Below, piece after piece: positions 41,516-64,000 of a DNA stretch of 64,000 bases. The DNA is from Tubulanus polymorphus. Its lineage: Eukaryota > Animalia > Nemertea. The translations under genes and the position numbers were made by a program. A model generated the notes under the pieces. That model saw nothing but the letters and a program-made list of their open reading frames with translations. It was not told where the DNA came from and did not search any database. The stretch is from contig NC_134031.1 in the NCBI RefSeq assembly GCF_964204645.1, positions 6,572,001-6,636,000 of the forward strand, in the 5' to 3' direction. Each line of letters starts with the position of its first letter. The stretch's first letter is position 1.

Positions 41516-42841
41516 TTGGTTCGGCAAACATAATCCTCTTGTCTCTGACAAAAATAACTTACATATGGATTTTAATTTCTAGATTTCAAGAGTTAAACCT
41601 ATTTGTGAAACTGGACCCTGGTATGCGAGGGTTTTAATAAGTCTTTCTATGGAATGCGAAGGTTTTGATTCACCCAGCGCCGCTCGGGTTCAGTAGCTAT
41701 AATCGATCTAATCTAAATGGCTCACAAAATGTTGCAGCCTCAGTGCCCTATCCTCGCTTGCCAGAGGTCCGGTATCGCTCCCGATCTTGCTTCAACAATT
41801 GGCTTTCCCTTCCCTGACGTTGAAGATGGGCCGTTCGTTCGTTCGTTCGTTCGTTCGTTCGTTCGTTCGTTCGTTCGTTCGTTCGTTCGTTCGTTCGTTC
41901 GTTCGTTCGTTCGTTCGTTCGTTCGTTCGTTCGTTCGTTCGTTCGTTCGTTCGTTCGTTCGTTCGTTCGTTCGTTCGTTCGTTCGTTCGTTCGTTCGTTC
42001 GTTCGTTCGTTCGTTCGTTCGTTCGTTCGTTCGTTCGTTCGTTCGTTCGTTCGTTCGTTCGTTCGTTCGTTCGTTCGTTCGTTCGTTCGTTCGTTCGTTC
42101 GTTCGTTCGTTCGTTCGTTCGTTCGTTCGTTCGTTCGTTCGTTCGTTCGTTCGTTCGTTCGTTCGTTCGTTCGTTCGTTCGTTCGTTCGTTCGTTCGTTC
42201 GTTCGTTCGTTCGTTCGTTCGTTCGTTCGTTCGTTCGTTCGTTCGTTCGTTCGTTCGTTCGTTCGTTCGTTCGTTCGTTCGTTCGTTCGTTCGTTCGTGG
42301 TGTTTTTTTTGGTTCGGCAAACATAATCCTCTTGTCTCTGACAAAAATAACTTACATATGGATTTTAATTTCTAGATTTCAAGAGTTAAACCTATTTGTG
42401 AAACTGGACCCTGGTATGCGAGGGTTTTAATAAGTCTTTCTATGGAATGCGAAGGTTTTGATTCACCCAGCGCCGCTCGGGTTCAGTAGCTATAATCGAT
42501 CTAATCTAAATTGCTCACAAAATGTTGCAGCCTTAGTGCCCTATCCTCGCTTGCCAGAGGTCCGGTATCGCTCCCGATCTTGCTTCAACAATTGGCCTGC
42601 CCTTCCCTGACGTTGAAGATGGGCCGTTCGTTCGTTCGTACGTTCGTTCGTTCGTTCGTTCGTTCGTTCGTTCGTTCGTTAGTTCGATCGTTCGTTCGTT
42701 CGTTCGTTCGTTCGTTCGTTCGTTCGTTCGTTCGTTCGTTCGTTCGTTCGTTCGTTCGTTCGTTCGTTCGTTCGTTCGTTCGTTCGTTCGTTCGTTCGTT
42801 CGTTCGTTCGTTCGTTCGTTCGTTCGTTCGTTCGTTCGTTC
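41516..42841 (+). repeat. Tandem duplication of a ~315-bp unit, each copy followed by a (CGTT)n microsatellite
   Basis: 41516-41831 matches 42310-42624; pure tetranucleotide arrays at 41832-42297 and 42625-42841. Confidence 0.95.
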
Positions 42842-43816: not shown

Positions 43817-44785
43817 TCATTCGCACTTAACCGTATCATCGATAGGGGCATCTCGCGATCCTACCGAATACCTCCATATACTTAAATTCCTACTGCCCAC
43901 TTTTAGCGTCTCCGTCATAATTCCCGCTCGACAAGTGCGCGTGACGAACGCAATGTGATCGTGAAGAATTGCACAATCTACGTCCGTAACATTTTCGAAT
44001 TTCCAAGTTCTATGAGACCGATGTAGAGAAGTGCATTTCTTGTTAACGTCACCGTATCGATCGATCATAACCTTTTTCCACTGGCGAGGGGCTGGCAACA
44101 TAAATTCCATAAATGGCACCCTAATAAGCGGGAAGATTTCGTCATAGCCTCGTCTAATCCACGGTAGGTAAGTCGAATCTTGCATGTAGGTTCCATTGTG
44201 CGAATAAGGCCACATATCAACAAAAGGCCATCTCGATTCTTTAAGGGATATCTTCCACGGACGTCTGTCGGGCTGTTTGAGAAACATACCGGCTACCTGA
44301 GGATCCTGTTCTGCGAATATCTTCCGAATTTTTTCCAGATCAGTCACCGCTACCTGCACGTCGAAATCGTCATCCCACGGAATAGGGCCGTGGTGACGAT
44401 ACGCGCCGATGAGAGTTCCCGAAAAAATGAAATAGCTTACGTTCAATCTTCGCATCAAAGCGTCGAATTGTCTTATGAGCAACTTGTACCTAGATTTCTC
44501 TTCGGCTGAAAACTTCGCAAGAACGAATTTCTCGAAGATAACACTTGACAGATTAGCCACAACGCCCACGTTACCGGTCTTATTATCATTAGTGAATTCG
44601 AAGTAACTATTTACCAAATTGTTCGCATTTTCCGCTAGGTGGATCTTCTTAGATTCGTCGAAACTTTCGCTCTGTCGCCGAAACACAGAACAGGTATCTA
44701 GATTCCGAATGTTTCCACTTTGGAATGTTAATAAGACCAAAAAGATCAACACGCCTAGCAAGCACCAGTATTTCAGCGAAGCCAT
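43817..44785 (-). CDS. LicD/fukutin-family phosphotransferase, type II membrane protein, single coding exon (322 aa from ATG 44785)
   Basis: SGTLIGAYRHHGPIPWDDDFDV LicD signature, WPFVDMW, YG...C; N-terminal hydrophobic anchor WCLLGVLIFLVLLTF. Confidence 0.88.
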   Translation of the reverse strand: MASLKYWCLLGVLIFLVLLTFQSGNIRNLDTCSVFRRQSESFDESKKIHLAENANNLVNSYFEFTNDNKTGNVGVVANLSSVIFEKFVLAKFSAEEKSRYKLLIRQFDALMRRLNVSYFIFSGTLIGAYRHHGPIPWDDDFDVQVAVTDLEKIRKIFAEQDPQVAGMFLKQPDRRPWKISLKESRWPFVDMWPYSHNGTYMQDSTYLPWIRRGYDEIFPLIRVPFMEFMLPAPRQWKKVMIDRYGDVNKKCTSLHRSHRTWKFENVTDVDCAILHDHIAFVTRTCRAGIMTETLKVGSRNLSIWRYSVGSRDAPIDDTVKCE

Positions 44786-47129: not shown

Positions 47130-47338
47130 CGATGAGTAAAAAATCCCACAATATTTGAACGAATCTAAAAAGTTTATTTGAAAATTAGAAATATTTCGGG
47201 TGGTTGCAGCCATCCTTCTTCATTCTAAAATGACTGAATTTTAGACTGAAGAAGGGTGGTAGCAACCACTCGAAATATCTCTAATTTCTAAATAAATTTT
47301 TTAGATTCGTTCACATATCGTGGGATTTTTTACTCATC
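47130..47338. mobile_element. Penelope-like palindromic remnant
   Basis: ~100-bp inverted arms gatgagtaaaaaatcccac.../...gtgggattttttactcatc; a single-arm copy lies at ~43545-43640. Confidence 0.7.
47241..47284 (+). ncRNA. Minimal type I hammerhead ribozyme motif
   Basis: TTAGA-CTGAAGA-a-gggtgg(tagcaa)ccactc-GAAA-TA-TC-TCTAA: core, stem II, stem I TTAGA/TCTAA. Confidence 0.65.
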
Positions 47339-49757: not shown

Positions 49758-51949
49758 AGATATCAAGTTTTCCGCAGGTGCAAATTCGGGAGATCGATTC
49801 TGAACTACGCTTGAAACTGTTTTACGTGTATGTTCTACGCTGATCTATAATCATTTCATATATGTGCTTTATACTCATTCGAAACATCCCCACTCTACTA
49901 AGATGGTTTATACGTTCATGCATACTACTGATATCTGCTAAAATATCCGCACATCCTGGTAAAACAGAATTTATGAAAGTCTTTTATCGGTATCAAGAAG
50001 GTCCTTCATTTTGTATATGGGGTTGAATAAATATATTTTCAATAGATATACGTAGATATATACCCATCTCTACAAAAAGTAAATCCTTCTCAATGCTTTG
50101 GTTTTAATTTCCATTCTATATTTGCTCAAGTTATTTTCCCTTGCACCAATCTGATATAATAACATTCTCATGTAATCTATTTCACGAAACGGGGCCGAAA
50201 TAATTGCATACCAGCTTGTCGGAAATGCGGATTCGTAACGCTATAGACAACGAAATTAGCGCACGAATCCACCACGGTCATAAGAATGCCGATTTTTCGG
50301 AAAACCATATTAAACCTGTAATTGCTAATTTGTATTCCATTCCCTAAAAGTCGATCAATAAGAAAAATGGATTCGCAGACGATAAAAACGGATACGACTG
50401 CGATAACCATCCGCATTACGCGCTGTTCTTTCGTGCCCGATTCTCTCCGGTTGTTCAACTTTGATGACATTTTACTGCGTTTCCTCCTCTTGATGATTAA
50501 ACTAATAATCAATGCCGCATTTGTTATGCATAATGATGTGAGTGGAACCATAACAGCTATAATGTATTCAGTCCACTTAAAGATTTTCTGACTCCAATTG
50601 AATAGGAAGCGGCGGACCTTCAGACTCTTAATGAGTGGAACCCCTCTGTTTACTGAAATACTTGGTCCGTTTTCACCACATGGCTTAATGAAGATAAAGC
50701 GCCCCCTGGGAACATATTGGGGTATATACATCGTTAACGCGAAAAGATGTATGAAAATCAATATAGAATTGACGACTTTTCTTGACCAAAATATCCGGGA
50801 TTTCAGCGGAAACATAACGATCATCAACCGTTCAAAACTCAACAACATTACACACCAGTTACGAGTCAGAAGGAATATGTAATAGCCCCCGTTGGAAACC
50901 TTGATGAAAGCTTTTCCAAATGCCCAGTCGTCCATTCGAAAAACAATGTCGCCTAAAAGCCGATAAACATGAGCCGTTCTCGCAGGGTACATGATGAAAA
51001 CAAACAGCGAGTAGAGCATATCATTGATAGACACGGCTTTAATCAGATAATATGAGCGGTTTCTCATTTTGTCCAAAATGATAATAGTAAAAGCATTTGA
51101 AACTATGCTTATGATTGCTGCCGGTGCATAGAAATAGATGTAAATGTAGACGCTGAACTGATATAACGACCGGATAGGTTTCAATCGCCATTTGTCACAG
51201 TCGGTAAGTTGGATCAGGCTCGGCGTCTTATTTTGCATTTCTATCACGGCTTCGTGCGAGAGTGAACGCGGTGTCTGCATTGAAAGATCTACTCGGTATA
51301 TGGATGAAGGAGGCTGTCACCAGTGCGCGATACGAACCAATCACTATTCTAAACTTTAACATCAATCACTCCGACTAGAGCAAATTGACATCATCGCTCG
51401 TAGTTCATTCAGATCATCGAATAAATCTACATCTTTAATGATCCAAACCATTAAGCAAACTGCGAGAAGTAGGAACTTCCAATCGTAAACCATTTGACTT
51501 GCAAATTTCGGTTTATTTTATTTCGGTTTCTCGATTACCATGGCAACCTTTCGTAGATATTTCAAAGAGAATTCAAAACATATCTGGTTTTTCTCGCGCG
51601 GGAAAACCAAAATGTTTTGAATTCTCGCGCGAGAGAACCAAAAATGGGCCATTGCGAAAATTCTTTATCGTTGACGGGAGATTTCTAATACGGCCCGAAT
51701 CAGCCACCATACCTCAGGGGCTCCGTACTTGGGTTATAAACTTTATCACGTATCACCACAATGGGTAAAGAATACGGGGGAAGTGTGGACCAAGCAAAAT
51801 CTGGTAAAATGTGTCAGCCGTGGAATTCTCAATCACCTCATCAACATGCCCACTACGATATGCTCCCCGACCGAGAAACAGCTTCGAATTACTGCAGGAA
51901 TCCGGATGACGAACCTGAAGGACCCTGGTGTTATACTATGGACCCCTAT
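49758..51949. repeat. Segmental duplication copy 1 (GPCR plus kringle); paralogue at ~60457-63318
   Basis: Colinear high identity; copy 2 has an extra ~190-bp internal duplication (60484-60860) and a ~490-bp insertion (61029-61520). Confidence 0.9.
50177..51280 (-). CDS. Intronless class A GPCR, FMRFamide/peptide-receptor-like (possible chemoreceptor)
   Basis: Seven hydrophobic segments; SN (TM1), AVSIND (TM2), SFERL (TM3), VFIVCE (TM6), DSCANFVVY...FR (TM7/H8). Confidence 0.88.
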   Translation of the reverse strand: MQTPRSLSHEAVIEMQNKTPSLIQLTDCDKWRLKPIRSLYQFSVYIYIYFYAPAAIISIVSNAFTIIILDKMRNRSYYLIKAVSINDMLYSLFVFIMYPARTAHVYRLLGDIVFRMDDWAFGKAFIKVSNGGYYIFLLTRNWCVMLLSFERLMIVMFPLKSRIFWSRKVVNSILIFIHLFALTMYIPQYVPRGRFIFIKPCGENGPSISVNRGVPLIKSLKVRRFLFNWSQKIFKWTEYIIAVMVPLTSLCITNAALIISLIIKRRKRSKMSSKLNNRRESGTKEQRVMRMVIAVVSVFIVCESIFLIDRLLGNGIQISNYRFNMVFRKIGILMTVVDSCANFVVYSVTNPHFRQAGMQLFRPRFVK

Positions 51950-52121
51950 TCAAGTAGAAATTATTATTATTTTCATATTTTTCATTTTTTTACTCACTCG
52001 CCCTTTCAACCTTTTACCTGAACCCCTATTTCCCCTATTACTCTTAAAATATTCATATATATGAATAACATATAAATGAATAACTTCTAAAATCAATTTA
52101 AAAAAAAAATTTAGTATTAAA

Positions 52122-52388
52122 ATGGAAGCAAATAAGTACTACTGTTCAACATGTAGAATCAATATAAATAAATCTCAAAAAGCAAGACACAATAAAACTA
52201 AAATACATTTAGAGAATAAATTGAAATTAGAATATAAAGATGATATATTAGAAACTAAATTAGATGAATTAAAGAATGAAAAAGAAACATACAAATGTGA
52301 TACATGTAATCAATCATTCAGTGATAAAAGATATTATAAAGAACATTTAAAATCTAAAAGTCATATTAGAAATAAGAATAATGAGTGA
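52122..52388 (+). CDS. 88-aa protein with two C2H2 (H-X5-H, matrin/JAZ-like) zinc fingers, in the left TIR
   Basis: CSTC-X11-HNKTKIH and CDTC-X12-HLKSKSH; homologues at 55694-55960 and 63890-64000. Confidence 0.7.
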   Translation: MEANKYYCSTCRININKSQKARHNKTKIHLENKLKLEYKDDILETKLDELKNEKETYKCDTCNQSFSDKRYYKEHLKSKSHIRNKNNE

Positions 52389-52396
52389 AATAATAT

Positions 52397-52906
52397 AAAA
52401 AGTAACGAGTAATTAACGAGTGAAATAATTCATATTTAAAACAGTGAATATTTATATTTATGTGCGTTAAATTCTTATTTTTTAACATAAAAAGTAACGA
52501 GTAATTAACGAGTGAAATAATTCATATTTAAAACAGTGAATATTTATATTTATGTGCGTTAAATTCTTATTTTTTAACATAAAAAGTAACGAGTAATTAA
52601 CGAGTGAAATAATTCATATTTAAAACAGTGAATATTTATATTTATGTGCGTTAAATTCTTATTTTTTAACATAAAAAGTAACGAGTATTTAACGAGTGAA
52701 ATAATTCATATCTAAAACAGTGAATATTTATATTTATGTGCGTTAAATTCTTATTTTTTAACATAAAAAGTAACGAGTAATTAACGAGTAAAATAATTCA
52801 CGTTTAAAACATTGAATATTTATATTTGAATGAGTTTTAATAGAAATTTTGTTATAAAAAGTAACAAATAATTAACGAGTGAAATAATTCATATTTAAAA
52901 CAGTGA
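52397..52906 (+). repeat. 92-bp tandem array in the left TIR (about 5.5 units)
   Basis: agtaac starts recur at 52401, 52493, 52585, 52677, 52769 and 52860. Confidence 0.95.
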
Positions 52907-54009
52907 GTATCAATTTAAAGAATTTTATCATAATTTAGTGCTGTGTAAAGAATAAAAATATTCACCTGATAGATTCATAGAATTACTATAAAATTAATAT
53001 ATAGATTTGAATATAATTTATACCTTTATCAGTGTTAAAATATAAGTTATATTAGTTAAAAATATATAATATGATAAATCTGTGAAGATGTAGGGTTTAT
53101 TTCAAATAAGACCCCCCTGTGTCTTTATGTCTTTAGTACTTTTAGTACATAAGAATAAATCTTTATATCATTAGTAGTTGAAAAATAAAAATCTAAGTAC
53201 TAATAAAATAAATATTTATTCTTTATGTACTAAAAGTACTAAAACTACTAAAGACAATAAAGACATAAGGGGGTCTTATTTGAAATATTATATATCTTCA
53301 CAGATTTATGTAATTTCTCAACCACTTAATGAAGATTCAATGTATTGTTGATTATTTGGGTCATTGTTCCATAATTCAATGAATTTCTTTGCGCATAATA
53401 TGTGTTTAATACATTAATACGTATTTAATACCATTAATACGTATTTAATATGTATTTAATACATTGATACCTCAACCCCTTTTTTGGTTAACTAATATTT
53501 CATACAATATTTCATACATTTCAGCTAATTTAACAGTCTTATTCGTGATTTATTTCATTTAGTGTATGAGTATACAATGTACACAATTTAATACTTAAAC
53601 AGTTTAACAATCTAATGGATTCATTGTAATACTCTATTATTAATGATAAATGTAAATATATAATTGAATATGATTTATACTTTTCCAAATATTTATAATA
53701 AATCTGTGAGATAAATAAATATTGAAACAGAAATATATATGATAAAACTATTTATATACCTATGTACTAGACGTACGAGTAAGAATCCAATAATCCAAGA
53801 TTCTTACTTTCTTGGCAAGAATCTTACTTTCTTACTCATACGTCTAGTACATAGATATATAAATTAGTTTTTATAAAAATTATAAATATAAATTATTAAT
53901 CTAAGTATAGAAATAGTTATAATATAATCTATTTTTATATATTTCAACCAATTTAACAGTCTATTGCTTAATTTGAATTATACAGTTTATCATCTAATTC
54001 ATGAATATA

Positions 54010-54270
54010 TTAATGATTTCTCAAACTCTTTTTATTTTTATATCTTTTATTACAAATTTCACAACACTTAATATTATTCAATCTATCTGAAATATAATTT
54101 ATATTATCTTTCAATTCTGTATATCTAATTTTACAAGAATCATAAAATTCTAAAAACTGTTTTATACTATAAATTGAAAAAGAAAATAAACCTGTAAGCA
54201 TAATAATTGATTTAATATTCTGTTGATTTTTATATATTAGATGTAATAAGTTTAATATATTTTCACTCAT
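54010..54270 (-). CDS. Small ORF with a hydrophobic segment and a C-terminal C2H2 finger cut by a premature stop
   Basis: IIMLTGLFSFSIY; CEIC-X12-H*YIH, where reading through the TAA completes an H-X3-H finger. Confidence 0.5.
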   Translation of the reverse strand: MSENILNLLHLIYKNQQNIKSIIMLTGLFSFSIYSIKQFLEFYDSCKIRYTELKDNINYISDRLNNIKCCEICNKRYKNKKSLRNH

Positions 54271-54425
54271 TTTTATAGTCAAAATATATGAAATTAAAAG
54301 ATGCTGTTTTAATCCTCTAAATCAATTTCTAAATTAACTTTTTTATTCTTTTTATTTCTGTGATTGTTTCCATTTAACTCCTTTAATTTTTTACTCAATT
54401 TATTATTTTCATTCATTAAATCTTT

Positions 54426-54527
54426 TTAAATATTCTCATAGTGAAAATATAATGCAGCCAAAATTAATCCGACTGCTACAAGATAATGCTTCAAATCACT
54501 TTTCCCAGTTGGAATGAAACCATCCAT
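54426..54527 (-). CDS. 33-aa putative membrane peptide (MDGFIPTGKSDLKHYLVAVGLILAALYFHYENI)
   Basis: ATG in a TAAATG context, one hydrophobic stretch, packed co-directionally between neighbouring ORFs. Confidence 0.4.
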   Translation of the reverse strand: MDGFIPTGKSDLKHYLVAVGLILAALYFHYENI

Positions 54528-54586
54528 TTATTTAAGAAAAAAATTATTAAATTGATAAGTACTCTGAAATATCTTATTTTGAATAT

Positions 54587-55162
54587 TTAGAGTTGAATTA
54601 TTACTTTTGAGTAATGATATTTCGATTTAAGATGGTGTGATTTATTGCTTCGAGTATAATATTTTCCACAATTACATAAAACGCTTTCATTAGGATTATA
54701 TTTAGGCGCAACAATTTCATCATCTAAATTACATTGAATTCCAATATCTTTATATGATTTTTCATTTGGAATGTCAGGGATAAATCTTTTTTCTTCTACT
54801 CTGAAAAACATTACATAGCATTCTCTGAAAGGGCAGTAACGTAAGTGTATGAATAATGTTTTATGTGAATTTTCATTATTAAAAAGTGATTGCATTTCAT
54901 CTGTAATTATTAAATGTTTATCTATTCCATCAAATGTTGTGAATTTTGGAATTATTGTATTGAATAAGAATTTATCTTTATCATTCGATAACTCTATTAT
55001 CAGATAATGATTTTCAAACACTAATTCAGTAATATTTTTCACTTGAAAACGAAGACGTGCAGTTTTAATCAAATCTTTAATAGGAAGGAAATTTTTAATT
55101 GTAAAATATTTTTCTAATTCATTTAAATCGATATCTTTGAAATGTAGTATCTGTTCATTCAT
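54587..55162 (-). CDS. ~190-aa protein: beta-rich N-terminal domain (possible OB-fold) plus C-terminal CxC...H-X5-H zinc finger
   Basis: Likely ATG start MNEQILHF; CNCGKYYTRSNKSHHLKSKYH; a diverged homologue lies at 57490-58063. Confidence 0.65.
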   Translation of the reverse strand: MNEQILHFKDIDLNELEKYFTIKNFLPIKDLIKTARLRFQVKNITELVFENHYLIIELSNDKDKFLFNTIIPKFTTFDGIDKHLIITDEMQSLFNNENSHKTLFIHLRYCPFRECYVMFFRVEEKRFIPDIPNEKSYKDIGIQCNLDDEIVAPKYNPNESVLCNCGKYYTRSNKSHHLKSKYHYSKVIIQL

Positions 55163-55202
55163 ATTTATAAGTAGTTTTTTTATTAAAATTGATATTTTCA
55201 TC

Positions 55203-55685
55203 AACTCGTTAATTACTCGTTACTTTTAAACATAAAATAAGAATTTAACGCATATAAATATAAATATTCACTGTTTTAAATATGAATTATTTCACTCGTT
55301 AATTACTCGTTACTTTTTATAACAAAATTTTTATTAAAACTCATTCAAATATAAATATTCAATGTTTTAAACGTGAATTATTTCACTCGTTAATTACTCG
55401 TTACTTTTTATGTTAAAAAATAAGAATTTAACGCACATAAATATAAATATTCACTGTTTTAAATATGAATTATTTCACTCGTTAATTACTCGTTACTTTT
55501 TATGTTAAAAAATAAGAATTTAACGCACATAAATATAAATATTCACTGTTTTAAATATGAATTATTTCACTCGTTAATTACTCGTTACTTTTTATGTTAA
55601 AAAATAAGAATTTAACGCACATAAATATAAATATTCACTGTTTTAAATATGAATTATTTCACTCGTTAATTACTCGTTACTTTTT
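55203..55685 (-). repeat. 92-bp tandem array in the right TIR
   Basis: Reverse complement of the 52397-52906 unit, with a different arrangement of standard and variant units. Confidence 0.95.
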
Positions 55686-55693
55686 ATATTATT

Positions 55694-55960
55694 TCACTCA
55701 TTATTCTTATTTCTAATATGACTTTTAGATTTTAAATGTTCTTTATAATATCTTTTATCACTGAATGATTGATTACGTGTATCACATTTGTATGTTTCTT
55801 TTTCATTCTTTAATTCATCTAATTTAGTTTCTAATATATCATCTTTATATTCTAATTTCAATTTATTCTCTAAATGTGTTTTAGTTTTATTGTGTCTTGC
55901 TTTTTGAGATTTATCTATATTGATTCTACATGTTGAACAGTAGTACATATTTGCTTCCAT
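55694..55960 (-). CDS. Inverted copy of the 88-aa double zinc-finger gene (second finger has C to R)
   Basis: Four amino-acid differences from 52122-52388; CDTR replaces CDTC. Confidence 0.65.
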   Translation of the reverse strand: MEANMYYCSTCRINIDKSQKARHNKTKTHLENKLKLEYKDDILETKLDELKNEKETYKCDTRNQSFSDKRYYKEHLKSKSHIRNKNNE

Positions 55961-56519
55961 TTTAATACTATTTTTTTTTTAAATTGATTTTAGAAGTTAT
56001 TCATTTATATGTTATTCATATATATGAATATTTTAAGAGTAATAGGGGAAATAGGGGTTCAGGTTAAAGGTTGAAAGGGCGAGTGAGTAAAAAAATGAAA
56101 AATATTAAAGTAATAATAATTTCTACTTGAATTAGGAGTGCAACTCATAAAAAATGAAAAATAAATTCGAGCGTGCGAGAATTATTTTTCATTTTTTATG
56201 AGTTTCGCGAGTTGTTGGCTGATCGTTCTCACGCGGAGAATTACTGCAGGAACCCGGATAATGAACCGGAAGGACCCTGATGTTATACTGTGGATCCTGC
56301 AAAACGGTGGGAGTACTGTAACTTACCCCTCTGTATAGGTAGGTCTTACCAAATTCAACTTACACCCAATCACTATTTTTATCTCAGACTAAGTGATTAC
56401 TGCGGTCTTTGCAAACGAATTGACCAACTTGTATGCAATAATGTAATAAAGGCATACACATTTCAAAAAGCTGTCTGGAGAAAACATCGAGCACCGGATA
56501 CTTTTCTGTTGTTTCTTTT

Positions 56520-56889
56520 CTCTCTGAATGTAGTCGAACGTAATTGGTCTGACCTCGCAGCAGAAATCAGGAGGGCATCGGCAAAGTTTATCCCAATGAA
56601 AACCCTGGGAACCCGCCCCCAGCTGCCCTGGATGACCCAACACATTAGACGTCTTATACGTAAGAGCAAAAATACATAAAGAGGATCTTTATGTATTTTT
56701 GGTAAGAGGGACCGCCTTTATCGCAGGCACAGGAAAACAGGCAATAGTAAGCAACGTAAAGACTTCACCAATCTAAGACACCAAATCCAGAGACTACTTA
56801 GACAGGCAGATAATAAGTATGTCGCAAATCTCCTGAACTCAAGTGAGCAAATTCCAAGTAATCTTTCCACGAAAAACTTGTTCTCGTAC
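56520..56889 (+). mobile_element. Degraded LINE fragment (CR1/RTE-like region between endonuclease and RT)
   Basis: VERNWSDL...FIPMK...LPWMTQHIRRLIRKRDRLYRR pattern. Confidence 0.6.
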
Positions 56890-57349
56890 ATGAGTTACAT
56901 TGCTAGTCTATAAATGTCTAAATAATCTGGCACCACCATATTTGCAGTCACTTATATCCTTGCATGTACCGAGTAGGTCACTTCGTTCCAGCCAAGATAC
57001 TAGTCGTTTGAACATTCCTTTTAGCAATAAATCCAGCTGTAAGAGAGCTTTTAGTTTAGCTGCTCCAGCTCTTTGGAATGCCCTGCCTGTCTCTGTAAGG
57101 CTTAGTCCATCAGTGCAATGTTTTAAGTCAAATTTAAAAACGCACCTTTTTAAAAGGACTTGTATGTTTTAAGCTATTTTACTGTGTCTTTGCTCCTGCT
57201 GTATTATCATATGCTTTTTAAGTTCTTGATTTTATGTAAATGTATTAACCCTTTGTACAGCGCATAGATTATTATTTTAGTTACGCGCTATATGAGAAAT
57301 TAATCATTATCATTATCATTATCATTATCTATATCATTATCAATTATCA

Positions 57350-57390
<41 letters not shown>

Positions 57391-57460
57391 TATTATTATT
57401 ATTATTATTATTACTATTACTATTATTATTATCATTATTATTATTATTTTTATTAATTAA
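56890..57460 (+). mobile_element. 3' end of an L2-clade LINE with (ATT/ATC)n tail
   Basis: LVYKCLNNLAPPYL...RSLRS...RAFSLAAPALWNALP...FKSNLKTHLF followed by a 3' UTR and trinucleotide tail. Confidence 0.85.
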
Positions 57461-57467
57461 TTAATTT

Positions 57468-58382
57468 GAAATATCTTATTTTTAATATTTAGAGTTGAAT
57501 TATTATTTTTGAGTTATAATATTTTGATTTAAGATGTGTGATTTATTGCTTCGAGTATAATATTTTCCACAATTACATAACGCTTTTTCATTAGGTTCAT
57601 ATTTAGGTGTTTCGATTCTATTGTCTAAATTACATTGAATTCCTACATCTTTGAATGATTTTTCATATGGAATGTCTAGGATAAATCTTTTTTCTTGTAA
57701 TCTGAAAACATTACATAGCATTCTCTGAAAGGGCAATAACGTAAATGTAAAAATAATGTTTTATGTGAATTTTCATTATTGAAAAGTGATTGTATTTCAT
57801 CTGTAATTATTAAATGTTGATCTATTTCATCAAATGTTGTGAATTTTGGAATTTATTGTATTGAATAAGATTTTATCTTATTCATTTGATAACTCTATCA
57901 TTAGATAACAGTTTTTAAACATTAATTCCGTAATATTATTCATTTGAAAACGAAAACGTGCAGTTTTAATCAAATCTTGAATAGGAATAAAATTTTTAAT
58001 TGTAAAATATTTTTCTAATTCATGTAAATCGATATCTTTGAATTGTAGTATCTGTTCATTCATATTTATTAGTAATCTTTTTATTGAAATTGATATTTTC
58101 TTCAACTCGTTAATTACTCGTTACTTTTTAATTGACAATTTATTTTACATATTTCTAATTCGAAATCTATATCAATAATGTTCATTTATATGGTATTCAT
58201 ATAAATCTCACACTTTACTCACACTTTTATTCGAAATCTATGAAATTCATATAAATATTGTTCATTTATATAAAATTATTAGAGTAATAGGGTAAGTGTT
58301 TTTTTTTCAGATTAAAGGTTGAAAGGGAGAGTAGGCTCGACCTTTCGACCTTTGATCTGAAAAAAACACTTACCCTATCACT
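57468..58382 (-). mobile_element. Second, partial and diverged member of the AT-rich element family, ending in a fold-back hairpin
   Basis: Frameshifted homologue of the 54587-55162 ORF, a single ctcgttaattactcgttactttt motif, a terminus similar to 55995-56080, and a hairpin 58283-58326/58341-58382. Confidence 0.8.
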
Positions 58383-58739
58383 GCTGTCTGAAAATAATTT
58401 TAAGTTTAAAATAGGATGGAGAGTGCATTGATAGAATCTACGCGGAGAGAAAGTCTGTTATATTTCTATCAGAATTCAACATTCCGTTTAGTAGCTGTTA
58501 GTTGTCGAATCCAAGAGAAGATGAATTTTATGTGATGAAAAAAAGTGGAAAATATGTAAATAATAATAATAATCAACAGAATTACAAGAGGGTTTTCGAC
58601 GAAAGTCAGAAAACCCTAGATACAGAATCCTAATATCATCGCCGAGCGATCTCGGCAATTTTCAATCTAAGTCCCTTAATTTAAGCATAATCATGCAATT
58701 CGTTGGTTGAATGGAGGGGCGTTTCAAATGAACGTACAG

Positions 58740-59200
58740 GTGGTGTGGTCAAATTTTTAACAACAAATGCCTTACCCGGATTTGGAGTTTTGGCAATGTT
58801 TTTAGAAAGGGAACGTGGGAAGCACTCCTCTAGCTGTAATGACCCTTCCTCCAGTTTGAGGACATCAATCAGCATGTCATAAACATGGTCGTCATAGACA
58901 CTCTCGAAAATTGGTTTTGCGATCCACTCTTGTTTTGCTTGGTGTACTCGACTTTGTACCTCAATTCTCCCTTCGCACCGGAATATTTTTTTGAATCCAA
59001 AACGGTTGCATGTCCTCTGTTGGTATTTGCATTATGGGTCATTACAGCTAGAGCAGTCCTTGCCTCCATTCCCTCTATTTTGTAATGAAGTCGTTTTGGT
59101 CTATACTGTAAAACAGTGCCATGAAATACCTCCAGCCCACCAGTATGACAAAATTCAGTTAGTTTTTCTAGATCTTTGTCAATTCTTTGTCCCGTAAAAT
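58740..59200 (-). pseudogene. C-terminal fragment of a DNA transposase (Kolobok/Mutator-like)
   Basis: CHTGGLEVFHGTVLQYRPKRLHY...MEARTALAVMTHN motif recalled from invertebrate DNA transposases; superfamily uncertain. Confidence 0.55.
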
Positions 59201-59244
59201 CAACACACCAATTTATGCGTTTCTGCATTTCTGCGTTTTGAAGA

Positions 59245-60430
59245 AACCGCTAACTCGATACAATGATTTTCGGGAGATTTAAATGAATCATCAAACTCCC
59301 TATGAAACCACTGTTTCTGCGTAACTATGTGGGCTCTGTAGCCACACAATCCACCAACAATAATCTATCCGCTGAAGGTACACTATTTTCCGATGTGCAG
59401 AATACGAATTCTGTACCACCTTCGACGGCTTTAACTTTATCCTTAGTTCTCTTCCGACAATCTGGGAATTTGTGTGTCGGGCTTCTACATAATTTACACC
59501 ATTTTCGCGCACTACTATTCGAGTCACTCTTCTGGCCACAATATTTTGCAATATGGCTAGTGTTCTGACACCTGAAGCAAACACGGAACTCTGGTCACGG
59601 TTTCTATCTAACACCGGATTGCGCATTTTCATAACGCTGTCTTAGCTTCACGCGAATTCTGGGTGGCTTTCGCGGTTTCTTCATAGCTTCTCAAAGCTTG
59701 TTTGAAATCGGAGAATTCTTGTGCCTTCTCGTTTTGAGTTATTACAACTACAAAGGGCTTATACGATACCGGCAACCCTTTTAATACCATTGCTATAAGC
59801 AAACTGTCAGAAATAGTCTCGTCAGCTTCCCGCAGGGCTGTAGCTGCTTTTTCAGCCCTAACGACATAGTCAGTTATTGACTATGAATTCGTTTTTACAA
59901 AGACGTAAGTTCCGTGTAAAGGGAAATAATTGTCGGTTTTCCCTTACCTTTGTAATGCTGACGTAAAATATCCATAGTCTTTTCGCCATTGTCCTTACCA
60001 TCACGGATTACTAGCGATAAGCTCTTGTCGTCTAAGTATTGTATAATCTCGGCAAATGTCTCTCTTCATTTTTATCATCGTTCACAACTTTTCCTTCAAC
60101 GACGTCTTTCAAGTTTTGTACCTCGAGATAACCCATTATCCTAATCTCCCAGAGTTCAAAATCTTTTTCTTCTCCACTGAAACAAAGTCTTGCATATCGA
60201 CCAGGCTCGGGCCTAGGCCCATAACCTGTTGAGGGTTCTGTGTTAGACGCATGAGCCTGGATCACTGATTGACTTTGATTAGCAATTTCGAGTGAGTTCG
60301 AAGGTCAAATTCGTTTGTATGCAGCTGTAGTAAAAATATGTTTGCATGCAGCTTCGGGTTACTGACAACATGCAGCAGTAATGAATCCTTAACATTGTCC
60401 GTAAAATTAACACACCAATTTCTGCTTTTC
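59245..60430 (-). mobile_element. Ty1/copia LTR retrotransposon fragment (LTR end, PBS, degraded gag and protease start)
   Basis: ...AACA|GGTTATGGGCC copia-type PBS at 60216-60226; LDDKSLSLVIRD...IISLYTELTSL gag; knuckles CFRCQNTSHIAKYC and CKLCRSPTHKFPDC; LLVDCVAT protease-like motif; frameshifts. Confidence 0.85.
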
Positions 60431-61543
60431 TGCTGACTGCATTTTGAAGAAACCGACCAGATATCGTTTTCTGCAGGTGCAATTGGGAGATAATTCTAAG
60501 CGACGCTTGAAAATGTTGTACACGTATGTTCTATTCTGATCTATAATCATTTCAAATACGTGCTCTGTAATTATCCGAAACATCACTGCAATACTGAAAT
60601 GTATTATTATTTATACCCACTACTGATATCTGCAAAAATATCCGTACAGATTGCATTCCTGGTAAAACCGAATGGGAGATAATTCCAAGCGACTCTTGAA
60701 AATGTTTTACATGTATGTTCTATTCTGATCTATAATCATTTCAAATACGTGTTCTGTAATTATCCGAAACATCACTGCAATACTAAAATGTATCATTTAT
60801 CATGCACACTACTGATATTTGCAAAACTATCCGTACAGATTGCATTCCTGGTAAAACAGAATCAAGTCTTTCATCGATATCGTGAAGGTCCTTCATTATA
60901 CGGGATTGAGTAGGTATATTTCAAATATGTAGATAGATACTCATCTCTAGAAAAAGTTAAGTATTATCAATGCATTGGTTTCAACTTCCGTTCTTTATTT
61001 GCTAAAATCATTTTCCCTTGCACCAATGGTGGAGCTTAGCGCATTCAGCGCTTGTTGGTATCGAAACTAATGATAATAATGATAATAATTCGTTTTCTAC
61101 TTGACACTTTACAAATTGAATTTAATCTCGGCGCTTTACAAAGTGTAAAAACATAAAAACCATAAGTTTAATGACACATTGAGTTATTAAGTAGGTATAA
61201 AAATATAATCGCATTTCAAATGTTCCTCTAAACAATTACTAGCATCACTTAGTAGCAGATGCTAAATTAGCCGCATCTCACTCCAATTATAAGTCTATCT
61301 GGTCAAAGAGATCGATGAGTTTTTTTAATTTGAATATGTATGCGTATTGGGGACAAAATGCGAAGAAAGTTCTTTAACTGATGGGTATTCGCGAGCTGAT
61401 ACGCGTCAGTTTGTGTCCGCTATCACTTTTCAAATATTCCTTTTGTTAGTATGTTTTGAGCTTTTATGAAGCGGGAAAAATAGCCACAGCTACGTCTGGT
61501 GGGTGTAGATGAAATGCGTGATATGATATCATTCTCCTGTAAT

Positions 61544-62647
61544 CTATTTCACGAAACGGGGCCGAAATAGTTGCATACCAGCTTGTCGGAAATGCGGATT
61601 CGTAACGCTATAGATAAAGAAATTAGCGCACGAATCCACCACGGTCATAAGAATGCCGATTTTTCGGAAAACCATATTAAACCTGTAATTGCTAATTTGT
61701 ATTCCATTCCCTAAAAGTCGATCAATAAGAAAAATGGATTCGCAGGCGATAAAAACGGACACGACTGCGATAACCATCCGCATTACGCGCTGTTCTTTCG
61801 TACCCGATTCTCTCCGGTTGTTCAACATTGATGACATTTTACTGCGTTTCCTCCTCTTAATGAGTAAATTGATAATCAATGCCGCATTTGTTATACATAA
61901 TGATGTGAGTGGAACCATAACAGCTATAATGTATTCAGTCCATTTAAAGATTTTCTGACTCCAATTGAATAGGAAGTCGCGGACCTTGCGACTCTTAATG
62001 AGTGGAACCCCTCTGTTTACTGTTATACTTGGTCCGTTTTCACCACATGGCTTAATGAAGATAAAGCGCCCCCTGGGAACATATTGGGGTATATACATCG
62101 TAGCCGCGAAAAGATGTATGAAAATCAATATAGAATTGACGACTTTTCTTGACCAAAATATCCGGGATTTCAGCGGAAACATAACGATCATCAACCGTTC
62201 AAAACTCAACAACATTACACACCAGTTACGAGTCAGAAGGAATATGTAATAGCCCCCGTTGGAAACCTTGATGAAAGCTTTTCCAAATGCCCAGTCGTCC
62301 ATTCGAAAAAGAATGTTGCCTAAAAGCCGGTAAACATGGGCCGTTCTCGCAGGGTACATGATGAAAACAAACAGCGAGTAGAGCATATCGTTGATAGACA
62401 CGGCTTTAATCAGGTAATATGAGCGGTTTCTCATTTTGTCCAAAATGATAATAGTGAAAGCATTTGAAACTATGCTTATGATTGCTGCCGGTGCATAGAA
62501 ACAGATGTAAATGTAGACGCTGAACTGATATAACCATTGGATAGGTTTCAATCGCCATTTGTCACAGTCGGTAAGTTGGATCAGGCTCGTCGTCGTATTT
62601 TGCATTTCTATTACGGCTTCGTGCGAGAGTGAACGCGGTGTCTGCAT
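61544..62647 (-). CDS. Intronless class A peptide-receptor-like GPCR, paralogue of 50177-51280
   Basis: 367 aa with 17 substitutions relative to the first copy; intact ORF. Confidence 0.88.
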   Translation of the reverse strand: MQTPRSLSHEAVIEMQNTTTSLIQLTDCDKWRLKPIQWLYQFSVYIYICFYAPAAIISIVSNAFTIIILDKMRNRSYYLIKAVSINDMLYSLFVFIMYPARTAHVYRLLGNILFRMDDWAFGKAFIKVSNGGYYIFLLTRNWCVMLLSFERLMIVMFPLKSRIFWSRKVVNSILIFIHLFAATMYIPQYVPRGRFIFIKPCGENGPSITVNRGVPLIKSRKVRDFLFNWSQKIFKWTEYIIAVMVPLTSLCITNAALIINLLIKRRKRSKMSSMLNNRRESGTKEQRVMRMVIAVVSVFIACESIFLIDRLLGNGIQISNYRFNMVFRKIGILMTVVDSCANFFIYSVTNPHFRQAGMQLFRPRFVK

Positions 62648-63129
62648 TGAAAGATCTACTCGGTATATGGATGAAGGTGGCTGTCACCAGTGCGCGGTAC
62701 GAACCAATCACTATTCTAAACTTAAACATCAATCACTCCGACTAGAGTAAATTGACATCATCGCTCATAGTTCATTCAGATCATCGAATAAATCTGCATC
62801 TTTAATGATCCAAACCATTAAGCAAACTGCGAGAAGTAGGAACTTCCAATCGTAAACCATTTGACTGTTGCAAATTTCGGTTTATTTTATTTCGGTTTCT
62901 CGATTACCATGGCAACCGTTCGTAGATATTTCAAAGAGAATTCAAAACATTTCTGGTTTTTCTCGCGCGGGAAAACCAAAATGTTTTGAATTCTCGCGCG
63001 AGAGAACCTAAAATGGGCCATTGCGAAAATTCCTCGTTGAGCCATACAGGAGATTCTCATGGCCCGAATCAGCCACCATACCTCAGGGGCTCCGTACATG
63101 GGTTATATACTTAATCACGTATCACCACA

Positions 63130-63562
63130 ATGGGTAAAGAATACAGGGGAAGTTTGGACCAAGCAAAATCTGGTAAAATGTGTCAGCCGTGGAATTCTCA
63201 ATCACCTCATCAACATGCCCACTACGATATGCTCCCCGACCGAGAAACAGCTTCGAATTACTGCAGGAATCCGGATGACGAACCTGAAGGGCCCTGGTGT
63301 TATACTATGGACCCCTATACACGTTGGGAATACTGCGATATAGGATTCTGTAAAGGAATGGCTCCTGAATGTGAAACTACCCAGAAAGGTCGTGAATATC
63401 AAGGCTTAGCGAATACAACTCGAAGCGGTTTGAAATGTCAGCGTTAGGACAGACAAACACCGCATAATCACACGAACTTCGAGTTGTTGGCCGATCGTTC
63501 TCACGCGGAGAATTACTTCAGGAACCCGGATAATGAACCGGAAGGACCCTGATGTTATACTG
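63130..63562 (+). pseudogene. Kringle pseudo-exon copy 2 (one complete and one truncated kringle)
   Basis: GKEYRG...NYCRNPD...GPWCYTMDPYTRWEYC, then GREYQG...CQR* (TAG 63445) and GP* (TGA 63550); breaks off into AT-rich DNA. Confidence 0.85.
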
Positions 63563-63565
63563 TGA

Positions 63566-63853
63566 GTAATTGTATATATATATATTAAATTTAAAAAGTT
63601 AAATGAAATAACATTACATACGAAATATTTAATTACAAATATTGAAACAATTACTAATAGATATGGCAATGAATTAGTGATTTACTTAGAATATGAAGGG
63701 TTAAAAGGAAATAAACATAAATTCAGAACATATTTACCAGATAGATTTCATAGATTATCTAGTGAAGATATTGAAGAATTATGTTCTGGTGATTTCTATT
63801 TCATATACAAAGGTAAGAATGAAAAAGGATGTCATGATATAGATTTTGATTAA
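63566..63853 (+). CDS. 95-codon open frame without in-frame ATG, putative small OB-fold-like protein
   Basis: ...IKFKKLNEITLHTKYLITNIETITNRYGNELVIYLEYEGLKGNKHKFRTYLPDRFHRLSSEDIEELCSGDFYFIYKGKNEKGCHDIDFD*; stop-free in very AT-rich DNA; absent from the ORF track. Confidence 0.55.
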   Translation, partial: VIVYIYIKFKKLNEITLHTKYLITNIETITNRYGNELVIYLEYEGLKGNKHKFRTYLPDRFHRLSSEDIEELCSGDFYFIYKGKNEKGCHDIDFD

Positions 63854-63889
63854 TACAAAATCAATTTAAATAAAAAATTTGATATTAAA

Positions 63890-64000
63890 ATGGAAGCAAA
63901 TAAGAAGTACTACTGTCCAACATGTAAAATCAATATAGATAAATCTCAAAAAGCAAGACATAATAATACTAAATCTCACTTAGAGAATAAATTGAAATTA
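63890..64000 (+). CDS. Partial zinc-finger gene (MEANKKYYCPTCKINIDKSQKARHNNTKSHLENKLKL...)
   Basis: Diverged homologue of 52122-52388, truncated by the window end. Confidence 0.7.
   Translation, partial: MEANKKYYCPTCKINIDKSQKARHNNTKSHLENKLKL

Follow-up and report, generated by a model that had tools for sequence, protein, structure and literature searches.

The prevailing view of Polinton-type DNA polymerases (PolBs) is that a terminal protein primes them and that an integrase which leaves a 5–8 bp duplication accompanies them. At the telomeres of poxviruses, asfarviruses and parvoviruses, terminal hairpins with imperfect pairing occur together with tandem arrays and genes duplicated in inverted repeats. 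Copy-back defective viral genomes are short, helper-dependent molecules, and the kalilo linear plasmid reportedly has a hairpin derivative. To our knowledge, hairpin ends are not expected in protein-primed replicons. Polintons/Mavericks of the pPolB2 class are equivalent to the adintoviruses with a Beta PolB (Jeong et al., 10.1101/2023.08.22.554363; Starrett et al., PMC8502044).

The window analysed here is the 64,000 nt of Tubulanus polymorphus NC_134031.1 (GCF_964204645.1) from 6,572,001 to 6,636,000, forward strand; all coordinates are window-based and are collected in Table 1. The 4.26 kb insert, element 1, is far AT-richer than its flanks (GC 0.383 and 0.397). Its inverted arms (51939–52880 and 55204–56142) were aligned over 944 nt with 94.7% identity, and mismatches outside the arrays occupy 10 of 442 columns. 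The 92 bp array unit includes a motif of which element 2 has a single copy, upstream of its ORF B; no match to the array motif was obtained in viral contigs, and Rfam gave none. The core ORFs (204, 33, 35 and 86 aa) are tightly packed and all lie on the minus strand. The base composition, the long TIRs with their arrays, the co-oriented core and two related members nearby had been described in the first-pass annotation and were all recovered. No Pfam match to an rve integrase or a capsid module was found in the element 1 ORFs scanned, the largest of which has 204 residues, and no NS1, VP capsid or helicase was found among its ORFs.

Table 1. Features of the element 1 locus in window coordinates.
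Feature	Position	Strand	Remarks
Host kringle-coding sequence, left flank	51761–51949	+	Left of insertion
Element 1, whole insert	51950–56207	.	4,258 bp, GC 0.213
Left inverted arm	51950–52910	+	Subterminal segment, PolB fragment, 92 bp array
Subterminal noncoding segment	51950–52088	+	Homologous to left end of contig L001
ORF A	52122–52388	+	Codons 1–88 of a Beta/pPolB2 DNA polymerase, with two zinc fingers; truncated where array begins
92 bp tandem array, left	52391–52910	+	5.7 copies
Internal imperfect palindrome 1	53074–53309	.	z = −19
Internal imperfect palindrome 2	53744–53871	.	z = −10.8
ORF D	54010–54270	−	86 aa; hydrophobic stretch and C2H2-like finger ending at in-frame stop
33 aa membrane-peptide ORF and 35 aa basic ORF	54309–54527	−	One frame, in-frame stop between
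ORF B	54587–55201	−	204 aa, intact; C-terminal zinc finger common to small unnamed proteins
92 bp tandem array, right	55204–55691	−	5.3 copies
ORF A'	55694–55960	−	Second copy of PolB fragment
Terminal imperfect hairpin, right end	56140–56208	.	z = −7.5, 0/200 shuffles
Second host kringle repeat	56208–56330	+	Right of insertion
Element 2	57458–58380	−	Hairpin end (58287–58378) joined directly to decayed ORF B copy
Paralogous empty site	63319–63479	+	Equivalent of the 161 bp replaced by element 1
Element 3	63565–64000	+	Runs off window; SSB-like gene, then PolB start
SSB-like gene of element 3	63566–63853	+	OB-fold, 5'-truncated
PolB start of element 3	63890–	+	

The arm ORFs had been annotated as a double zinc-finger gene, in an element described as free of PolB motifs. 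Neither statement holds. ORF A is 65.6% identical to residues 1–93 of a 1,365-residue PolB on metagenome contig L001 (hhalign probability 99.4), and the nucleotide sequences match at the PolB start with 76% identity over 314 nt; an independent zinc-finger gene was thus ruled out in favour of an N-terminal PolB fragment. Against Pfam and PHROGs, ORFs A and D gave generic zinc-finger matches only. ORFs A and A' differ by four nonsynonymous and no synonymous codons, and codons 1–88 are all that element 1 retains of a protein-primed PolB. On sequence grounds, element 1 is a descendant of a Polinton-type PolB element. The N-terminal part of a Beta PolB of Polinton/adintovirus type, found in each arm, names the helper lineage.

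Among the core ORFs, a 204-codon frame such as ORF B is expected by chance about 5 × 10−7 times in element 1. Residues 1–172 had no homologues among 63 candidates (restricted to lengths of 112–357), the C-terminal finger was matched in 12 proteins and viral contigs yielded no homologue of ORF B. The best Atlas match (0.89) serves as a lead only, and the structure model (pLDDT 33) is too low in confidence to judge the previously suggested beta-rich domain. Comparison of ORF B copies gave 37 nonsynonymous and 14 synonymous codons, with no sign of purifying selection.

Element 2 is 89.8% identical to element 1 over 676 nt, and the same end segment precedes the PolB start in element 1 and ORF B in element 2. 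Element 3 shares its SSB–PolB order with L001 (75% identity over 419 nt). For the SSB-like protein, Foldseek gave no match at E ≤ 0.001, the best VIA-align hits were OB-fold proteins with weak scores (Z of 5.4–5.0) and a search of viral contigs found nothing.

L001 is the one close relative that was read (5.9 kb, with its right end lost in repeats) and encodes an SSB-like gene, PolB and HNH in that order. Its protein contains PolB motifs together with a DHDH...HNxCN domain that looks intact. It also has a CFLW motif, conserved in L001 and its relatives, that may represent an OTU-like domain, judging from the motif and published descriptions; no profile match for such a domain was obtained. Among homologues of the L001 PolB, some bear the name DNA-directed DNA polymerase or contain PF03175, for which the L001 PolB itself gave no match. 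A PDB sequence search with the C-terminal half of PolB returned no significant match, and a single-sequence PolB query of viral contigs found nothing. In the tree, the L001 PolB is placed with Beta PolBs from contigs that bear integrase and capsid, in a clade separate from its integrase-bearing relatives (SH-aLRT 99); the 20 clade members with contig data lie on contigs of 4.5–10.8 kb. No integrase adjoining PolB, hexon or rve-chromo was found in the 5.9 kb of L001, a contig that may be incomplete. The left end of L001 starts with a 16 bp inverted repeat (z = −3.2, 0/200 shuffles), whose significance is lost in a longer window (9/200). The subterminal sequence is common to L001 and element 1 (score 55, 0/500 shuffles) and the element 2 end matches L001 weakly (15/500); the right end of L001 showed no likeness to element 1. 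A two-motif end pattern was found at 120 loci, which we regard as chance matches because none has a tblastn match to PolB or to the element ORFs.

Two of the two ends visible in full within the window are hairpins. That of element 2 (z = −15) contains T–G pairs and is therefore no perfect fold-back. The left end of element 1 is cut inside the arm, within the terminal palindrome, and does not fold (z = +0.5), so the hairpin end of the first-pass annotation stands for the right side only. Element 1 also contains two internal imperfect palindromes, absent from that annotation. As regards covalently closed ends, the observation consists of palindromic ends in the sequence and in reads of many family copies; the palindromes could be head-to-head junctions between integrated copies.

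Family sequence is present in four sequencing runs, and the reads contain many family copies and further internal deletions. In X5, 527 reads return to the arm from 56208–56212, 163 change strand at 56135–56159, 144 connect 53390/53392 with 55847, which represents a further deletion form, and 485 depart from the window sequence at 52384, the end of the PolB frame. Relative to the flanks, family DNA in one run is 10–24 times above that in the raw-read run. The inner array bins lie at or below flank depth, and the element ends and PolB start are approximately 22-fold higher. On this profile, the 4.26 kb architecture is unlike an amplified mini-replicon; of the mini linear replicon suggested earlier, the dependence on a helper, the origin from a linear DNA replicon with hairpin-type ends and the absence of a transposase are upheld.

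At the insertion site, in a kringle gene, 161 bp of target are lost, with no target-site duplication of 4–11 bp, and the sequences on either side run collinear with the empty paralogue. Contigs of X1 and X3 bridge the site without the insert. Among the read and contig pieces listed none crosses either junction; the evidence for the insertion is therefore the assembly together with the collinear empty paralogue. A cut-and-paste TIR transposon (foldback/MULE) was rejected on the missing duplication and on ends homologous to a viral PolB contig; a Helitron was likewise rejected.

Element 1 is probably a deletion derivative of copy-back type, itself non-autonomous, that stems from a Beta-PolB linear replicon, likely hairpin-ended, and was likely captured at a double-strand break in a kringle gene. 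The PolB start in both arms and the hairpin at one end make it a likely defective copy-back offshoot. It was likely patched into a chromosome break and not inserted by an integrase, and its parent was possibly an undescribed hairpin-ended linear virus or plasmid. A helper with SSB, PolB and HNH, as on L001, would replicate linear molecules from the ends inward by strand displacement. Template switching would yield a short molecule with one end region on both sides of a gene cassette; elsewhere, this cassette (ORF B, membrane peptide and ORF D) immediately follows a hairpin end. Such molecules would require only their ends in cis, and host end-joining would paste one into the chromosome, the left hairpin and target being trimmed. 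An endonuclease VII-like domain inside PolB, or the neighbouring HNH protein, is predicted to resolve palindromic junctions, producing hairpin ends.

A conventional Polinton or adintovirus derivative, either decayed or non-autonomous, whose 15–20 kb helper has integrase and capsid and whose hairpins and target deletion arose by later rearrangement, is an unlikely but serious competitor. Its PolB class is that of element 1, an rve integrase was found in 11 of 21 more distant Beta-PolB loci and a double jelly-roll capsid in three (hand-picked ORFs), and long TIRs are typical of Polintons. The target loss without duplication, the hairpin and palindromic ends, the separate L001 clade on contigs of 4.5–10.75 kb and the lack of an integrase beside PolB on L001 all argue against it. 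We give distinctly less weight to an integrated segment of a multipartite virus resembling Drosophila Vesanto virus, with shared terminal repeats, SSB–PolB–HNH on one segment and ORF B-type cargo on others. The single end segment before different genes agrees with this, as do the 4.3 kb insert and the 6–7 kb PolB contigs when set beside the 3.3–5.8 kb TIR-bounded segments given for Vesanto. However, PolB truncated in both arms is a defect and not a segment design, the inner array depth does not exceed that of the flanks, no NS1, capsid or helicase was found, and bidna-like viruses use Alpha PolBs, whereas the L001 PolB groups with Beta PolBs.

We consider it very improbable that the locus is an artefact of the assembly or that a foldback transposon of the host picked up viral fragments. 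The uncrossed junctions would fit, and library preparation can generate palindromes, but the arms differ, the hairpins are imperfect, the flanks are collinear with the empty paralogue, the ends are homologous to L001 and the family occurs in four runs; an assembly chimera was rejected.

For the copy-back derivative preferred here, we tentatively suggest, as a rather doubtful extension, that the helper is an undescribed small (6–11 kb), integrase-free, possibly capsid-free or segmented linear replicon of invertebrates with a Polinton-type PolB, SSB, a junction-resolving nuclease and hairpin ends, which would replicate free in some individuals (run X1), yield copy-back defective genomes and enter the germ line via DNA breaks. 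Such a replicon would be for animals what linear plasmids are for fungi, and would connect protein-primed with rolling-hairpin replication. The family combines hairpin ends with numerous deletion forms and a lack of duplication at the one checkable site, and its PolB clade is separate and known from short contigs only. Should the helper lack an integrase and live free in cells, animals would possess a plasmid-like linear replicon; the run with a 10–24-fold excess would then allow a direct test for the free Polinton-type intermediate, so far unobserved. Were the helper an ordinary adintovirus, element 1 would still be a clear case, of modest interest, of copy-back defective genomes fixed in the germ line.

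Compared with known systems, element 1 resembles poxvirus, asfarvirus and parvovirus ends in structure, with no sequence link and a polymerase lineage of Polinton type. Like transpovirons, it is a capsid-less, helper-dependent linear TIR element, but transpovirons encode a Tlr1-like SF1 helicase (PMC11161782), none was found in element 1 or L001, and this identity was rejected. With Drosophila Vesanto virus and bidnaviruses (PMC8363768), it shares 3–6 kb TIR-bounded units, common termini and a PolB-bearing unit; their Alpha PolB, NS1 and capsid were not found here. The pPolB2 Polintons are matched by L001 in a Beta PolB that has an inserted HNH/endonuclease VII-like domain and a putative OTU-like one, and by element 1 in its long TIRs (within 100–1,500 bp) and in occurring as decayed endogenized copies in animals. 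Unlike those 13–25 kb elements, it measures 4.3 kb with only 88 PolB codons, bears its PolB start in both arms, has hairpin ends and lacks integrase, capsid, ATPase, protease and a 5–8 bp target-site duplication. From the deletion derivatives of pPolB linear plasmids it differs in being integrated in an animal nuclear genome and in its Beta-PolB lineage, but it shares with them and with copy-back genomes a short, helper-dependent form, duplicated ends, a hairpin and origin from a pPolB replicon.

The 88-codon ORF in each arm of element 1, the AT-rich insert in a kringle gene, is a truncated polymerase, because the left-arm copy (ORF A) corresponds to residues 1–93 of the PolB encoded by metagenome contig L001 (65.6% identity, probability 99.4) and because element 3, a related fragment nearby, has the SSB–PolB order of L001 (75% over 419 nt). 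The first-pass annotation had listed no PolB motif and had described a double zinc-finger gene, a description that is now superseded. ORF A and its right-arm copy differ by four nonsynonymous and no synonymous codons. L001 was the single contig retrieved in a scan over 18 of 64 parts, using an alignment of the two relatives returned by a search with the small protein of element 3. On weak evidence, its 128-aa protein is likely to be an OB-fold single-strand binding protein: the nearest named Atlas cluster is Phi29_Phage_SSB (0.85; name on 44% of cluster members), and comparison with Pf3 SSB gave a Z of 5.0. The 256-aa protein matches endonuclease VII/HNH families (E 5e-12). The 1,365-aa protein contains the PolB motifs DANNLY, KLLNNAFFGK and YFDTDS, an exonuclease motif, an endonuclease VII-like insert and a CFLW motif that we take to be OTU-like. 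Its 45 homologues include animal proteins named DNA-directed DNA polymerase. As these classes are outlined in their sources, it matches both the pPolB2 class that carries an inserted HNH domain (Jeong et al., 10.1101/2023.08.22.554363) and Beta PolB (Starrett et al., PMC8502044).

The overall architecture was annotated correctly from the start: an AT-rich element of about 4.26 kb (flanking GC 0.383 and 0.397), inverted repeats of about 950 bp with 92-bp arrays (944 nt, 94.7% identity; 5.7 and 5.3 array copies) and small co-oriented core ORFs. Outside the arrays the arms differ at 10 of 442 columns. The 204-codon frame has a chance expectation of ~5e-7; the 33- and 35-aa ORFs form one frame with a stop between them, and the stop of the 86-aa ORF falls within its zinc finger. 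The annotated hairpin was recovered at the right end (z −7.5, 0/200 shuffles), but the left end gave none in the folding test, and two long, imperfect core palindromes (z −19 and −10.8, respectively) had been missed. These are unlike the terminal hairpin by BLAST and are possible origins or relic ends.

Features of the window and of contig L001
Feature	Position	Size	Remarks
Element 1	51950-56207	4,258 bp	GC 0.213
Element 1 core ORFs		204, 33, 35, 86 aa	minus strand
Core palindromes	53074-53309; 53744-53871
Element 2	57458-58380		hairpin joined directly to decayed copy of the 204-aa ORF (ORF B)
Element 3	63565-64000		encodes small protein
L001		5,888 nt	GC 22.6%; three long ORFs (128, 1,365, 256 aa)
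Host duplication	50152-51955; 61519-63324		96% identity
Rhodopsin-family GPCR genes	50177-51280; 61544-62647		two, intact, intronless, in the 96% identical duplication; each divergent from a kringle gene
LicD-family ORF	43817-44785	322 aa	intronless; Pfam E 2e-16
Duplicated unit	41516-42048; 42309-42841		98.7% identical; long CGTT microsatellites
Decayed repeat 3' end	56330-57455		presumably LINE-like (by eye); then ATT microsatellite abutting element 2
Fragments	58680-60050		minus strand; 119-aa ORF without Pfam match and a remnant taken to be Copia gag-like
MITE-like palindromes	47131-47338; 51567-51626; 62936-62995		short; host DNA

Element 1 is flanked by kringle-coding DNA (Kringle Pfam match) within the host duplication, and replaces 161 bp of the paralogous empty site; this comparison revealed no target-site duplication of 4–11 bp. 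Contigs of sequencing runs X1 and X3 join 51949 directly to 56208, without the insert. The X1 contig shows no differences over 164 nt where the paralogue shows one, and therefore probably represents an empty allele or a third paralogue. Among the read and contig pieces listed, none crosses either junction of the filled site. Elements 1 and 3 (51949/51950 and 63564/63565) both lie in paralogous kringle repeats, each being missing from the other paralogue, and the same nine-base coding motif precedes them by 12 and three bases, respectively. With n = 2, the pattern may reflect a favoured cleavage site (an HNH nuclease is encoded by the helper, the full-length replicon proposed to supply functions) or a local hot spot.

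Depth was expressed as the ratio to the median depth of the flank, itself duplicated; values for the core, PolB start and ends were 3.4, 23 and 22 in X5 (raw reads), 5.7, 46 and 53 in X2, 5.3, 33 and 45 in X3, and 48, 552 and 230 in X1. Depth over the inner array bins does not exceed that of the flank, so the exact architecture of element 1 is rare. At 52384, the end of the PolB frame, 485 X5 reads depart from the window sequence, and these copies would hold more of the PolB gene; a shorter deletion form is represented by 144 reads that link 53390/53392 to 55847. Relative to the flanks, family depth in X1 over 51572-56233 is 10–24 times that in X5, a lead for free replicating molecules. Contig depths added together do not give a copy number, and the library type of X1 is unrecorded; the excess could also stem from a different lineage or from biased amplification.

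In X5, 527 reads run from 56208-56212 back into the arm and 163 change strand at 56135-56159. The terminal palindrome is therefore longer in many copies than in the window, and the reads are compatible with either free hairpin ends or chromosomal head-to-head junctions. The element 2 hairpin (z −15) contains T–G pairs. Its ORF B copy (89.8%) has three indels and a stop, and with 37 nonsynonymous against 14 synonymous codons the comparison gave no sign of selection. An inverted repeat of 16 bp opens L001 (z −3.2; 0/200 shuffles for 70 nt, 9/200 for 130 nt), and the following 80 nt align to the end of element 1 (0/500 shuffles) and more weakly to that of element 2 (15/500).

The observations are that the ends are shared, that the start of PolB is duplicated, and that there are hairpins, a loss of target sequence and many deletion forms. 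We propose that a helper encoding SSB and a Beta PolB would copy linear DNA starting at its ends, that template switching would yield a short molecule flanked on both sides by one end region, and that host repair would capture this molecule at a chromosome break; the nuclease domain is predicted to resolve palindromic junctions. Hairpin ends are unexpected, because a terminal-protein domain is described in Polinton PolBs (Krupovic et al., PMC11161782). The kalilo plasmid is reported to have a hairpin-forming deletion derivative (cited in PMC11161782), and hairpins may therefore, by analogy, be restricted to defective forms. The end of L001 itself argues, weakly, that the intact form is also hairpin-ended.

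A quick tree built from 70 PolB cores, after 14 short rows had been dropped along with 12 near-duplicates (SH-aLRT support, no bootstrap), placed P0004–P0011 and P0059 in one clade (SH-aLRT 99), whose position among other Beta PolBs is unsettled in that tree. For the 20 clade proteins that have contig data, every contig measures 4.5–10.75 kb, although metagenome contigs are often short. L001, whose right end disappears into 11-bp repeats, has neither rve integrase nor capsid in its 5,888 nt. Among 43 more distant loci (27–41% identity), 37 hand-picked ORFs from 21 were tested, giving rve integrase in 11 loci and double jelly-roll capsid in three. A segmented genome, as outlined for Vesanto virus (PMC8363768; PMC11071296), offers an alternative. 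Twenty-one Beta-PolB contigs (L024–L044) were binned in bacterial or archaeal MAGs and are likely to be misbinned eukaryotic viral DNA; L030 carries an assembly coverage label of ~170.

Non-autonomous Polintons are present in Repbase. A recent preprint (10.64898/2026.10.13.758929) outlines a strong pairing of PolBs with DDE integrases. No hairpin-ended Beta-PolB elements of animals are described in the titles and abstract openings covered, subscription papers being mostly outside them. We tentatively propose, while considering it rather unlikely, that the helper represents a novel type of linear replicon in animals. Canonical Polintons are outlined as elements of 13–25 kb with an integrase and 5–8-bp duplications; element 1 differs from them in size, integrase and duplication, and shares with Polintons descent from the same polymerase lineage.
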